NCBI GenBank assembly: GCA_030595925.1
Contig: JAUVLC010000001.1
Location: 1,476 to 65,475, forward strand
DNA: 64,000 bases
Source of the DNA: Clostridia bacterium
Lineage (GTDB): Bacteria; CBDUZB01; JAGLHV01
Direction of reading: 5' to 3'
Numbering within the stretch: position 1 is the stretch's first letter; each line of letters opens with the position of its first letter. Below are positions 41,967 through 57,527 of this stretch, piece by piece. Made by a program: the position numbers and the translations under genes. The notes under the pieces were generated by a model. It was not told the origin of the DNA. It saw only the letters and a program-made list of their open reading frames with translations, and ran no database searches.

Positions 41967-42497
41967 TTACCCCTTTATTTTTATTTCATAATCTCCTACT
42001 TGTACTTTACATATTCCTTCCGGTAAATCTTCAATAAACATTTCTCCGTTTTGCGTTGTTTTTCCCTGTATCACTTTACCATCCGGTGCAGTAAAATGAA
42101 AGTCTTCATTAGTAAGAATGTTACCCTCAGAATCTTTAACCACCGCTTTAAACTTATGTTTATCTTCTTTCTTAGGTTCTTCACTTGCGGTAGCGGCATT
42201 ACCTGGTGGACTTGTTCCAATGCTCACCATTAGGTCGCCCATCAGAATACTTGCTGCACAGGGTGGACCTACTATATCTCCCATACAAGCCGCGGGTTTG
42301 CCTTCGATAAGGACAGAAGGCACTCCCTGCATAATCGGTGTTACCGCATGAGGTACAGTTCCTGAAACAAGAGGACAACTCTGCATATCCCCCATTCTGG
42401 CTGCAGGTTTCCCACCAATAAATACTGTCCCTGCGCCCTGGGTTATAACCCCTCCATGAGTTGTCTGGTCTCCCATCCTTGCTGCCTGTCCCGGCAT
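41967..42497 (-). CDS. PAAR-domain spike-tip protein with a C-terminal beta-sandwich extension
   Basis: Three PAAR motifs (GKPAARMGD, MGDMQSCPL, GKPAACMGD); C-terminal ~60 aa extension; RBS AGGAGGG. Confidence 0.85.
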   Translation of the reverse strand: MPGQAARMGDQTTHGGVITQGAGTVFIGGKPAARMGDMQSCPLVSGTVPHAVTPIMQGVPSVLIEGKPAACMGDIVGPPCAASILMGDLMVSIGTSPPGNAATASEEPKKEDKHKFKAVVKDSEGNILTNEDFHFTAPDGKVIQGKTTQNGEMFIEDLPEGICKVQVGDYEIKIKG

Positions 42498-42508
42498 ATT
42501 CCCTCCTT

Positions 42509-42635
42509 ATGAGCATAGAGCATTGAGCATAGAGCATTGAGCATAGAGCAAAAAGCATAGAGCATAGAGCATAGAGCATAGAGCTAAGAGTAAAGAGCTT
42601 AAAGCTAAGAGCTTAGTGCTATGAGCTAAGAGTAA
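42509..42635. repeat. AGAGCWW (GAGCATA variant) heptamer array
   Basis: gagcata gagcatt gagcata ... gagctaa. Confidence 0.85.
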
Positions 42636-42722
42636 AGATAATTTCAGATTATGAATTTCAAATTCCTTTAATTAATCTGAAATGTGTAGAACCCGTCGTT
42701 CCTACACCGACATTGCTGTTTG

Positions 42723-54839: not shown

Positions 54840-55205
54840 TTAACGAAACAATCGCCATAGAAAGCATCCCAGCTCTCTCCCTGGAAAAATGGGTAATCCA
54901 AACACAAACATTAGAATAATTAATTGTGAAAAAATTAAAAAAGAGAGACAAATCCATATATATACCCGTTGGCACAATTTAGATTTAAACCTGAAAGTCT
55001 GCGTCAAAAAATATATCCCTATTGCAAAAAGTATAAAGGGAATAGCAATTCTAAATTTCGTATCTAATTCTAAGAGGTTAAAATCCATTTCCATCTGCGT
55101 ATATATGTTTATCCTCTCATAATAAGAATCAGCAATTACAAAAGGTATTATTATACTTAAAAAGCAAAAACCGATAATAAATTTTCTATAATTCACTTTC
55201 ATCAT
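54840..55205 (-). CDS. small polytopic membrane protein (candidate immunity protein)
   Basis: 121 aa with 3-4 predicted TM helices; overlaps the upstream gene by 4 nt; sits between the two spike genes. Confidence 0.4.
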   Translation of the reverse strand: MMKVNYRKFIIGFCFLSIIIPFVIADSYYERINIYTQMEMDFNLLELDTKFRIAIPFILFAIGIYFLTQTFRFKSKLCQRVYIWICLSFLIFSQLIILMFVFGLPIFPGRELGCFLWRLFR

Positions 55206-56026
55206 TCTGACACAAACCTTTCTATTTTACCTCTCTTAATCCCAAAAAACCCGTATTGATCGGGCACCATTCTCACCTTTAATTTCTCATTTTTTATTTT
55301 GTCTAAATTTTTTCCAGAACGTGCCTTATATTCCTTCCATTTCTTCCCCTCATTGTGTGAATATTCAAATTTCATATATGTCGTACAAGCATATACTGTA
55401 ACTTTAAATTCATTCGCAAATATCTGTGCAAAACTTTCTTCCATTACTTCATCTCTTTCTCTCCTATGTCTATCTCCAAGATTACACACAAAAAAATGTA
55501 CTGTTGCTTTTTTATCAAAATGCCGCGTTATCATGTTTTTCTTATCCTCAGGAAGTTGTGTCACATGACCAATAGTGAAGTATCTATCATGGATACAAAA
55601 ATTAAATGTTTCATCTGTACGTTCTACCCTTGGTTTTGGTAACCAAAGTACTTTCTTATCATAGATAGTATACAATTTCTCTCTTATACCTTCACCACAT
55701 TTCCCATGCCAATTAGTATTAAATTCCTTTGACCAACCATGTCCATATATATAAAGTTCTTTTATCTTTTCAAAGGACTTTTCCCTTTTTTTCAATAATA
55801 CTTCTAAAACCTGATATGTATTTTCTATTTTTTTACATTCTATTTTATAATTTGGAAATTCTTTCTTTTTTTCTATCTTTGTTGTCAACGCAGCCACATC
55901 AAAAGGGGCTGGCTTCTTACTATGGTCACTACAATGAAATATAATTATTTCTCCTTTCTTAACTACAACTTTACTCTTCTTATTTTTCTCTATTGAGTCT
56001 CCCATAAATTTCTCCCTTTGCGTCAT
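55202..56026 (-). CDS. hypothetical protein (candidate spike-associated effector)
   Basis: 274 aa with no confident domain (HCSDHS / YIYGHGWS motifs); its position between spike paralogs and upstream of the membrane protein suggests an effector/immunity pair. Confidence 0.4.
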   Translation of the reverse strand: MTQREKFMGDSIEKNKKSKVVVKKGEIIIFHCSDHSKKPAPFDVAALTTKIEKKKEFPNYKIECKKIENTYQVLEVLLKKREKSFEKIKELYIYGHGWSKEFNTNWHGKCGEGIREKLYTIYDKKVLWLPKPRVERTDETFNFCIHDRYFTIGHVTQLPEDKKNMITRHFDKKATVHFFVCNLGDRHRRERDEVMEESFAQIFANEFKVTVYACTTYMKFEYSHNEGKKWKEYKARSGKNLDKIKNEKLKVRMVPDQYGFFGIKRGKIERFVSE

Positions 56027-56105
56027 ACAAATTGTAGTTGCCTGATTTATCAGGCTAAAAAATATTAACGATAAAGCTCAATAAATTAAGCAACTACGAT
56101 AAAGT

Positions 56106-57527
56106 TTAATCAGGAAATTCTACTTCCCATTTTTTAGCAGGCGGTAAATTGCTAACCTTAGCAAAACCTTTCTCATTAAGTTGCCCTTCTACTCTTTTCC
56201 CATCCGAAGAAACCAAGACAAACTTTTCATTAGCCAAAGGATTATCTTCTTCATCAACACACTCTAATTCAATCCAATCCTTAAACTCCACTATCCCTGA
56301 TTTTGATTCTTTATCTTCTATCTTTACCTTAAAATAATATTCGGGTTTGGTATATCCTTTTTCTTTCTGTTCTTTGTCACTATCTACATCATCAATGTCT
56401 TCATGATATTCATATTTCCATTTCGCTTCTACCCTGTTTTCTTTAACATTACCTAATAAAGTAGTAATGTAGTCATCTTCTCCTTTTGTATCTTTCTCAT
56501 ATATCTTAAAAGTAACTTGTGTGCCATCAGGAAAACTTTTTGTTGAACAAGACAATGTTATCTCATCTCCGCATCGTGCCTTGCTCTTTGACCACCGGGC
56601 ACTACTAATAAATTTCGTTTCTTCCTTTTCCTCACGAGCTTCTTCCTTTTGACCTGTAACCGCCACAGCCGCAGCAGCAGTAACGGCCATTGGTGCCATA
56701 GGCGATCCACCCATACCTATCTGCACCTGTGTTCCTTTTACCTCTTGAATCCTTGCGGCAATTCTTTTTAAACCTCCACCTGATTCCATCTGCACCTGTC
56801 CACCTTTTAACTCTACATTAGCTCCACCTTGCGAGAGCATATTAACATCTGCCTTATTTTCTATTCTATTTCCTTTCACCTTTAAATTTTCATTGGAAAT
56901 AATGGTCATATCTTTTGTTGCTTTTAACTCTAATGTACCTTCAGACTGGATATTTATTGATTTTGATGCGCTGATACAAAATTCTTTGCACTCAATAGTT
57001 ACTTTTCCCTTAAGTGCTTTAATATTTATATTTCCCTCATTGGTAATAAAATTAGTCTGGTTCTCTTTTGCTTCTTTATTATTATTTATCTCTATTCTAT
57101 TATTAACAGTTTTATCAATTATTTGTATTTTTTCTTTATCTTTAGTATCATCCATAATCAATAAATGTCCACTTGCAGATTTTATATAACGCAAATTATT
57201 CTTTGCATCTTTGTTGCGATCAGATTCTTGATTTTCTTCTGTCGTCGGTGGTCTTCTTTCTTCCGTCCAGATACTCTTAATCACAAAAGGGCTATTTACA
57301 TCCCCTTGATGAAACATTACTAAAACTTTATCATAAATGCAAGGCATAAAATAAGTTCCCATACCAGAACCAGCCAAAGGAATAACTACCGGTGCCCAAT
57401 TACTCACACAATTATCTCCCCAAGCAGAAAATAGCACCTTTACTCTTGCTCCTCCTTTTTCCAGCTCCACTACCTCTCCTATTTCCACCCCAAATATTCT
57501 CTTTTTTTGACAAGGTCCGTAATCCAT
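56106..57527 (-). CDS. gp5/gpV-like baseplate spike protein with a ~190-aa C-terminal extension, copy 1
   Basis: N-terminus IFGVEIGEVVELEKGGARVKVLF...WAPVVIPLAGSGMGTYFMPCIYDKVLVMFHQGDVNSPFVIKSIW; beta-helix region; C-terminal extension ends with a beta-sandwich module shared with the PAAR and LysM proteins; start refined to MDYGPCQ (RBS GAGG). Confidence 0.75.
   Translation of the reverse strand: MDYGPCQKKRIFGVEIGEVVELEKGGARVKVLFSAWGDNCVSNWAPVVIPLAGSGMGTYFMPCIYDKVLVMFHQGDVNSPFVIKSIWTEERRPPTTEENQESDRNKDAKNNLRYIKSASGHLLIMDDTKDKEKIQIIDKTVNNRIEINNNKEAKENQTNFITNEGNINIKALKGKVTIECKEFCISASKSINIQSEGTLELKATKDMTIISNENLKVKGNRIENKADVNMLSQGGANVELKGGQVQMESGGGLKRIAARIQEVKGTQVQIGMGGSPMAPMAVTAAAAVAVTGQKEEAREEKEETKFISSARWSKSKARCGDEITLSCSTKSFPDGTQVTFKIYEKDTKGEDDYITTLLGNVKENRVEAKWKYEYHEDIDDVDSDKEQKEKGYTKPEYYFKVKIEDKESKSGIVEFKDWIELECVDEEDNPLANEKFVLVSSDGKRVEGQLNEKGFAKVSNLPPAKKWEVEFPD

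Follow-up and report, generated by a model that had tools for sequence, protein, structure and literature searches.

In type VI secretion systems (T6SS), effectors dock on transthyretin (TTR)-like domains of the spike complex. The N-terminal strand of Tle1 completes the TTR domain of VgrG, which hangs on a flexible linker (PMC10715212, the 6SJL work), and the TTR domains of P. aeruginosa VgrG4b and VgrG5 specify PldA and PldB (PMC6684961). In Vibrio, TTR domains on PAAR, VgrG and RIX proteins act as an adaptor or loading platform, and in AlphaFold2 (AF2) predictions the TTR barrel is completed by residues 1-25 of the effector (PMC10435454). The TTR domain of A. baumannii VgrG17 has been modelled as 2+3 strands plus one strand of Tae17, whose N-terminus carries an Ig-like domain followed by LysM, both required for binding; in the AF2 model of the pair, the VgrG TTR domain and the effector Ig-like domain are each completed by a strand of the partner (PMC11796386). 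Across 130,825 surveyed vgrG loci, LysM and PG_binding_1 occurred either in genes of their own or joined to the C-termini of VgrGs or the N-termini of toxins; the same study demonstrated experimentally that LysM is required for the VgrG-effector interaction, and placed the LysM domains of extracellular contractile injection systems (eCIS) phylogenetically apart from those of T6SS (PMC10673891). Here, we analysed a 64-kb stretch of a low-GC (~33%) bacterial chromosome (contig JAUVLC010000001.1; the whole stretch is hereafter called the window), in which a module of ~55 aa occurs in four copies on three proteins of an Afp/PVC-like eCIS locus, namely a gp5-like spike (spike 1), a PAAR tip protein and a 577-aa LysM protein. 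We consider it on balance probable that the four segments are a TTR-like cargo-docking domain as on T6SS VgrG and PAAR proteins, with the 577-aa protein as a polymorphic cargo effector docked on the spike tip of an eCIS.

A preliminary description of the window had read the four segments as one small module, to be checked by pairwise and profile alignment with shuffling controls. All four peptides were located exactly, at aa 116-167 of the PAAR protein, aa 29-81 and 162-212 of the 577-aa protein and aa 435-486 of the spike open reading frame (ORF). Local BLOSUM62 scores between proteins were 68-75 against shuffle means of 21-23 (z 10.3-12.4), with none of 2000 shuffles reaching them, and the two copies inside the 577-aa protein gave a z of 37.7. 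Among all 516 ORFs in the six frames of the window, phmmer searches with each segment matched the other module-bearing proteins alone (full E 2.9e-4 to 9.4e-10), and the next best match beyond them had an E of 0.26. Moreover, a family hidden Markov model (HMM) trained on 330 copies of the module (325 taken from proteins that are not in the window) matched exactly four sites (domain E 8.8e-21, 5.4e-20, 1.3e-19 and 1.8e-16), while nothing else in the window scored below 0.4. The four segments are thus one module, whose similarity lies far above what composition would give, and these tests rejected chance or compositional similarity. The range first given for the module (41967-57527) holds for the PAAR and spike peptides but not for the gene of the 577-aa LysM protein (40222-41955), which lies just below it.

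Recent copying of the module within the locus, among spike, PAAR and LysM protein, was also considered and rejected, because the identity of the window copies across proteins (29-37%) is below that to copies in other genomes. The module of the 577-aa protein is 29-30% identical to the window's own spike and PAAR copies and 52% identical to the spike 1 module of a relative, a 30-kb contig of a different metagenome whose genes are ordered as in the window (L004/L008, hereafter L008). Recent duplication is confined to the two copies of the LysM protein, in which the second unit of module plus LysM arose by a 393-nt tandem duplication (41092-41875, 89% identity).

The module has the subfamily consensus WIEIELvDedGkPvagepYritLPDGsvreGkLDanGrarvegippGeCkVrFPdlD, and its signature (WIEIEL-x-D-x2-G-x-P ... 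LPDG ... G-x-LD-x2-G ... G-x-C-x-V-x-FP) is distinct from the Pfam families CarboxypepD_reg, SpaA and Cna-B; Pfam scans found no family dedicated to it. AF2 with an 80-sequence alignment predicted five strands at a mean predicted local distance difference test (pLDDT) score of 86.9, and a run on the whole PAAR protein without an alignment (pLDDT 42, about 70 in the module only) was not used for the fold search. The best match of the four-copy profile among PDB sequences was the CnaB pilin BcpA (E 1.6e-4). Foldseek agreed on the fold class (BcpA, CnaB2 and SpyCatcher, TM scores 0.67-0.76), with no match at E <= 1e-3 and with the VgrG TTR structure 6sjl_A, 14% identical in sequence, in 36th place. 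Homologues of the module cover just positions ~5-54 of CarboxypepD_reg (82 positions) and SpaA (91 positions) and show weaker Pfam matches to Invasin_D3, Big_1 and MG4; multi-copy homologues pass the Pfam cut-off through their summed score, such as the 59.6 bits of one protein (P0001), and CarboxypepD_reg is not among the Pfam matches listed for the window proteins. Taken together, these results bear out the transthyretin/carboxypeptidase-regulatory-like pattern noticed earlier. The fold class is secure, a short, five-stranded prealbumin/TTR-like domain, which by its profile matches is homologous to CarboxypepD_reg, SpaA and Cna-B at the superfamily level, and the evidence for a special closeness to the VgrG TTR domain is suggestive. 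An exhaustive HMMER search with the four-copy profile over 1.84 billion representative proteins returned 3333 at E <= 1e-3 and 508 at E <= 1e-10, most of them carrying 2-31 module copies; the very large multi-copy matches are ordinary SpaA/Cna-B proteins, so that the figure of 3333 describes the superfamily and not the subfamily. The four-copy alignment gave no match in a word-indexed homology search.

On both spike 1 and the PAAR protein the module is a C-terminal extension behind a linker. The low-complexity linker GTSPPGNAATASEEPKKEDKHK precedes the PAAR copy, and spike 1 consists of an OB domain plus beta-helix, an Ala/Glu-rich linker, a second small beta domain (domain X) and the module. 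This spike is of the short, eCIS type, without a gp27/Phage_GPD domain. Its longest ORF (488 aa) reaches 57572, and we place the likely ATG at 57527 because the L008 orthologue (384 aa, with a single module at its end) begins at the equivalent MDYG. Among the 120 best PAAR homologues, 10 carry the module and most others are bare PAARs of ~97 aa.

To see the module in other genomes, we searched genomes representative of their species for a degenerate DNA pattern encoding W[IV]E.EL.D..G.P, which gave 120 blocks of 8 kb from many Gram-negative phyla, a sample biased to canonical copies of that motif and to 8-kb blocks. HMM-confirmed modules were present in 87 blocks, on 114 ORFs, whose Pfam matches were Phage_base_V (28), Gp5_trimer_C (27), Phage_GPD (24), PAAR (14) and PG_binding_1 (9), so that VgrG or PAAR proteins make up at least 37% of the module-bearing ORFs. 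The C-terminal extension was seen in 33 VgrG-like and 13 PAAR ORFs, the usual case being a VgrG of 760-930 aa with a single terminal module, and a VgrG-like or PAAR ORF was present within the 8 kb in 59 of the 87 blocks. The module is therefore a hallmark C-terminal extension of contractile-system spikes and tips. The appeal of the preliminary description to T6SS, in which TTR-like extensions recruit effectors, agrees both with the Phage_base_V and PAAR shares of these ORFs and with documented platforms (PMC10715212, PMC6684961, PMC10435454). Domain X, which has no Pfam match, follows the pattern W-x-k-x4-GD-x-v ... W-x-fEY ... PE-Y/F-F-F-K/R-V; all 18 X-bearing ORFs of the sample also carry the module, forming an X-module cassette, usually as PAAR-module-X-module or as X-X-module proteins of ~300 aa. 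X without the module stands N-terminally in the Tae4 effector of L004 and in a 1100-aa Amidohydro_2 protein of L006.

The recurrent neighbour of the module is a LysM/PG_binding_1 protein. Directly next and on the same strand, a LysM/PG_binding_1 ORF of ~210-330 aa follows 41 of 79 evaluable module-ending ORFs (52%) and 19 of 26 VgrGs (73%), compared with 82 of 1219 for the remaining ORFs of these loci, a background that is rough, its ORFs running from stop to stop. The module is also fused with LysM/PG_binding_1 in 12 ORFs, and in a Planctomycetota locus (L046) a module-LysM-module-module protein adjoins a VgrG with the module. Where the VgrG has no module, a small conserved module-ending protein often lies between the VgrG and LysM genes. 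The 577-aa protein has module and LysM fused in the same order in which they are neighbouring genes elsewhere, and does so twice. This conserved order and these fusions, with the parts of the 577-aa protein 52% (module) and 54% (LysM) identical to those of L008, make a Rosetta-stone argument for a module-LysM contact, and suggest from gene arrangement that the TTR-like module is the VgrG-side partner in LysM-dependent effector loading. The small intervening proteins form a family of ~130-145 aa (M-x-SPKSG-x-AGSAV ... ADPGEV ... KAEQ ... GKYG ... KPP, then one module), found between module-less VgrG and LysM+PG_binding_1 genes at L017 3133-3972, L023 2870-3295 and 5893-6318, L097 3543-3977, L071 2601-3014, L114 6930-7349 and other sites; the family resembles the C-terminal platform of VgrG in a detachable form.

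The 577-aa protein consists of a leader (aa 1-24), two units of module plus LysM and an NLP-like C-terminal domain. Its LysM match (31.4 bits) exceeds the Pfam cut-off of 20.9, and LysM 1, its unusual C-terminal tail included, shows 54% identity across 70 aa with the N-terminus of a 227-aa LysM+PG_binding_1 protein that follows the module-bearing spike 1 in L008. The window thus has LysM fused to the N-terminal part of the candidate cargo, and L008 has it as a separate gene after the spike. Of the name "LysM-NLP protein" given earlier, the LysM half stood, whereas the NLP half is weak: the NPP1 match (aa 403-485, E 0.0041) reaches 17.7 bits against a cut-off of 21. The matched part contains SHEHDWE, to be compared with the GHRHDWE-type heptapeptide of NLP/NPP1 cytolysins (PF05630). 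The C-terminal domain had no PDB sequence match at E <= 10 to any NLP and no NCBIfam match, and a word-indexed search gave no homologues. An identical 577-aa protein occurs in the same arrangement in an independent JGI metagenome.

The gene of the 577-aa protein lies in a slot whose content is exchanged between relatives. In blastn of the window against L008, homology runs from 42500 to 41905 at 88.5%, is lost, and resumes at 40025 at 91%; the conserved flank takes in PAAR together with 17 codons at the start of the gene that follows, after which a 1.9-kb cassette is replaced. The L008 slot encodes a 297-aa protein (the shared MSNGKV leader, domain X and Tae4) and then a 152-aa gene, and the L010 slot holds another pair, unannotated genes of 247 aa and 229 aa, after a module-bearing PAAR that is 65% identical. 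Directly downstream of PAAR, the window, L008 and L010 thus have three different contents: the 577-aa gene, Tae4 with the 152-aa gene, and the 247-aa and 229-aa genes. In the window, no immunity gene is evident between 40222 and 39990. In L001, the PAAR with module is followed by a 226-aa LysM+PG_binding_1 protein. This position makes the earlier term "putative cargo" reasonable, and the 577-aa protein may be delivered and toxic.

How the parts might work together can be sketched from the T6SS cases. The module would be tethered by flexible linkers, in three copies per spike 1 trimer (after domain X) and one copy on the PAAR tip. In the 577-aa protein, the leader and the two module-LysM units would be the delivery region, and the possibly NLP-like C-terminal domain the payload. 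Docking would rest on beta-strand (fold) complementation, edge to edge, of the incomplete sandwich on spike or PAAR with the N-terminal region or LysM of the effector, as modelled on Tle1-VgrG1, Tae17-VgrG17 and LysM-dependent loading in vgrG loci, and the spike tip would then carry the effector into the target. The binding of part to part, the choice of binding surfaces, and the delivery and toxicity of the 577-aa protein are all predicted here by analogy.

Several points weigh against this docking proposal. Known eCIS cargo, as in PVC and Afp, is packed in the tube lumen. If the module binds LysM, the fused modules of the effector might occupy its own LysM intramolecularly, leaving the spike and PAAR copies without a clear partner. 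The shared 17-codon leader may be just a recombination junction, and the window lacks a stand-alone LysM-PG_binding_1 gene after spike 1, unlike its relative. The window copies stay below the Pfam gathering scores (SpaA 21.6 bits, cut-off 23.1; Big_1 18.9 bits, cut-off 34.9), and the assignment of the C-terminal domain as an NLP/NPP1-like toxin is weak, resting on a sub-threshold sequence match. Finally, eCIS baseplate genes were found in 0 of the 87 sampled 8-kb blocks, a count of low sensitivity given the short blocks; the setting of the window is therefore unusual within the sample, and the transfer of the T6SS mechanism to an eCIS is an extrapolation.

The same domain on spike, tip and cargo had first been taken as a homotypic adaptor system, in which the module copies bind each other, for example by reciprocal strand exchange, and the shared domain is the recruitment code. 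With five strands, covering the first ~55 positions of Pfam models of 82-91 residues, the sandwich could be open for such an exchange, and in the AF2 model of Tae17-VgrG17 both domains are completed by the strand of the other partner (PMC11796386). Moreover, 23 of the 87 sampled loci have at least two module-bearing ORFs. However, most sampled loci have one, and the recurrent neighbour is the LysM/PG_binding_1 protein. L008 keeps the module on spike and PAAR (the latter about 88% identical in DNA) but has none on its Tae4 effector in the same slot; within +/-10 kb, the PAAR protein of L001 is the sole module ORF; and the window copies are closer to copies elsewhere than to each other. The adaptor part of the earlier idea thus holds by T6SS analogy, while the homotypic part is unlikely, although like domains may exchange strands reciprocally, as in the Tae17-VgrG17 model.

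An explanation that we regard as just as improbable gives the modules no role in loading. They would be adhesin-like or spacer domains which, with LysM, anchor the tip and toxin on the target wall or surface after firing. This would fit the likeness of the fold to CnaB/SpaA, invasin and Big_1 domains of pilins and adhesins, the giant proteins with up to 31 tandem copies that the profile also matches, and the location of the modules at the particle end that meets the target; the tight linkage with the peptidoglycan-binding LysM and PG_binding_1 also suits a cell-wall role. In T6SS experiments, however, VgrG TTR and LysM domains mediate effector binding and loading (PMC10715212, PMC10673891, PMC11796386), a C-terminal module beside a downstream N-terminal LysM, and fused in that order, points to protein-protein contact, and the target of an NLP-like payload, should it be real, would be membranes of eukaryotes, where peptidoglycan is absent. 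Least probable of all, and very unlikely, is a promiscuous small beta domain shuffled among neighbouring genes without shared function, or a compositional artefact: the superfamily is huge and architecturally promiscuous (the 3333 representatives at E <= 1e-3) and the LysM-protein pair is a recent tandem duplication, but chance is excluded, and the retention of the module on spike 1 and PAAR in relatives, with a non-random architecture and gene order across phyla, argues for selection on a spike-complex function.

Returning to the docking proposal, its new element would be T6SS-style loading on the spike tip in an eCIS locus, with the binding itself predicted by analogy. Cargo choice and carriage are central to eCIS biology and matter for the engineering of these particles into vehicles for protein delivery. 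In the route known for eCIS, cargo is packed in the lumen of the tube. To judge from this locus, some eCIS may also rely on the solution of T6SS, with effectors on TTR-like spike and PAAR platforms and swappable cassettes. A dedicated model of the module (WIEIEL...LPDG...G.LD..G...G.C.V.FP) could mark spike-associated cargo and adaptors. A further idea, which we hold as tentative and rather doubtful, is that the module on the carrier and an N-terminal LysM on the cargo or adaptor form a two-piece docking interface across phyla, in T6SS islands and at least one eCIS lineage; with the interface internalised here as two fused units, effectors could daisy-chain or oligomerise on the four tethered modules. 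If this were true, such an interface with daisy-chaining would be a quasi-homotypic, strand-swapping mode of loading not described for any contractile injection system, and it could serve to re-target eCIS cargo to the spike tip.

The housekeeping genes alaS, recA, ftsK, pnp, infB and nusA occupy 1-24 kb of the window, and the injection locus extends from ~29.7 kb to past 64 kb, entirely on the minus strand. Its Pfam content includes two eCIS_core (DUF4157) proteins, a CIS_tube+LysM protein, a gpD-like hub, two gp5-like spikes, gp25, Baseplate_J, PAAR, Tail_P2_I and an AAA+ ATPase; the presence of eCIS_core, Baseplate_J, gp25, CIS tube/LysM, hub, spike, PAAR, Tail_P2_I and AAA+ ATPase in a single cluster is the gene content of an Afp/PVC-like eCIS. 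The sheath, tube and cap genes would sit upstream on the minus strand, past the end of the window. The coordinates of the main features are collected in Table 1.

Table 1. Features of the spike-tip region of the window and sites of domain X in other loci
Feature	Position	Strand	Evidence or remark
PAAR tip protein gene, 176 aa	41967..42497	-	Pfam PAAR_motif aa 9-76, E 6.4e-21, 74.8 bits; NCBIfam T6SS_PAAR_dom E 6.1e-11
TTR-like module, PAAR C-terminus (aa 114-174 of 176)	41976..42158	-	family HMM domain E 1.8e-16
Putative cargo effector gene, 577 aa	40222..41955	-	LysM match; occupies swappable cassette after PAAR
Effector leader MSNGKVLKSNTNKEIKDIIVKKPP	41884..41955	-	first ~17 codons within the flank shared with the relative, whose Tae4 effector is unrelated
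Module copy A, aa 25-82, fused directly to LysM 1	41710..41883	-	
LysM 1, aa ~83-140, extended tail ...IPHKEVVQKKCKTG	41536..41709	-	Pfam LysM
Module copy B, aa 159-213	41317..41481	-	HMM domain E 5.4e-20; 83% identical to copy A
LysM 2, aa ~214-271	41143..41316	-	83% identical to LysM 1; in duplicated unit
C-terminal domain, aa ~290-577, contains YYYP...SHEHDWEW	40225..41088	-	candidate NLP/NPP1-like toxin
Spike 1, gp5/VgrG-like, 473 aa from likely ATG	56106..57527	-	Phage_base_V E 4.3e-15; NCBIfam VgrG_rel E 1.9e-16
Module at extreme C-terminus of spike 1 (aa 431-488 of 488-aa ORF)	56109..56282	-	family HMM domain E 1.3e-19
Domain X, spike 1 aa 321-430, ARWSKSKARCGDEITL...KWKYEY...PEYYFKV	56283..56612	-	X HMM E 6.3e-43; sole window copy
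Domain X elsewhere	L004 10617-10955; L003 16096-16614; L006 11234-14536; L132 316-1233		
274-aa protein, family unassigned, directly downstream of spike 1	55202..56026	-	position variable among relatives
121-aa membrane protein after 274-aa gene	54840-55205	-	position in locus
Spike 2, 269 aa, paralogue without C-terminal extension	53890..54699	-	Phage_base_V E 1.6e-18

One eCIS cluster here holds two spike paralogues, the X-module-extended spike 1 (56106-57527) and the bare spike 2 (53890-54699), on which the module HMM gives no match. Between them lie the 274-aa gene, without a match in Pfam and NCBIfam scans, and the 121-aa gene. At the same position after spike 1, L008 has the LysM+PG_binding_1 gene (227 aa) and then genes of 444 aa and 363 aa; given this differing content, the region between the spikes looks like a second variable effector/immunity slot, and the 274-aa and 121-aa genes are a candidate second cassette of this kind, their role being proposed from gene position.

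We also observed tandem heptamer arrays in nearly every intergenic gap from 25.4 kb on (25390-63922), for example at 38695-39127, 36777-36947, 32914-33099, 26519-26950, 25390-25696, 62645-62829 and 51544-51712. They are of two kinds, often adjoining (AGCTAAG/GAGCATA-type and TATCCTG-type), reach up to 62 copies, and are ~13-29x denser than in the housekeeping half (1-24.5 kb); they occur in the related contig L131 and, more weakly, in L008. The arrays account for odd pseudo-ORFs ('CILYPVSCILY' and 'MLYALCSML') that lie upstream of genes. Type IX secretion-related genes lie within the injection cluster and encode a 660-aa NHL-repeat protein with a Por_Secre_tail sorting domain (51716-53698), a PorV-like outer-membrane protein (49989-51518) and a 204-aa protein that ends in this sorting domain too (35754-36368), the final ~75 residues of the 660-aa and 204-aa proteins being almost identical. 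The sorting domains and the PorV-like gene may point to the FCB group. Two secreted paralogues (42723-43661 and 34771-35616) share a near-identical N-terminal part of ~130 aa (signal peptide plus GLPGKINYQGKLKENGEPVNGTK...) and differ in their C-termini, one having a CTHRC1_C domain; L008 carries a third variant of 300 aa, and the two paralogues may be tail-fibre or receptor-binding proteins. A PIN-domain/AF2212-like pair, a probable toxin-antitoxin module, lies on the plus strand at ~44100-44750 between the Baseplate_J and CTHRC1_C genes, and also in L131 at 1912-2633.

Compared with the T6SS VgrG TTR domains (EAEC VgrG1-Tle1, PDB 6SJL; VgrG4b/VgrG5-PldA/PldB; VgrG17-Tae17), the module likewise forms the very C-terminus of a gp5-like spike, behind a linker, with a putative cognate effector adjacent, and its five AF2 strands match the 2+3 strands of the VgrG17 TTR domain (PMC11796386). 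The window spike differs in being short and eCIS-type, without gp27/Phage_GPD, in a locus with eCIS_core, Baseplate_J, gp25 and CIS_tube, and in having the extra domain X before the module; binding is predicted by analogy. With the PAAR-TTR proteins and secreted RIX-TTR adaptors of Vibrio T6SS (Kanarek et al. 2023, PMC10435454), the locus shares a TTR-type domain after PAAR and a putative three-part unit of platform, downstream effector and immunity gene, and two unrelated effectors after near-identical PAAR-module genes share their first ~17 residues. In contrast to Vibrio, the context here is an eCIS and the effector itself carries the domain twice, fused to LysM; binding of the leader to the module is presumed. 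With regard to LysM, the 577-aa protein represents the fused type and L008 the separate-gene type of vgrG loci (Commun Biol 2023, PMC10673891), and a small beta domain plus LysM ahead of a toxin domain recalls Tae17 (PMC11796386). In those studies the toxin binds VgrG only via LysM. The VgrG-side partner was not named in PMC10673891, whereas the module-then-LysM order and fusions suggest the TTR-like module, and the window LysM is of the vgrG-island type despite the eCIS locus. Pfam CarboxypepD_reg (PF13620), SpaA (PF17802) and Cna-B differ from the module in their length, only the first ~55 of 82-91 model positions being present here. As in PVC and Afp lumen loading, where a short N-terminal effector region is involved in eCIS cargo selection, an N-terminal region may matter, but the anatomy here points to spike-tip attachment, as in T6SS. 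Taken together, the window matches the T6SS picture part by part, except that the locus is an eCIS and that the N-terminal beta domain of the effector is the same module as that on the spike and tip.

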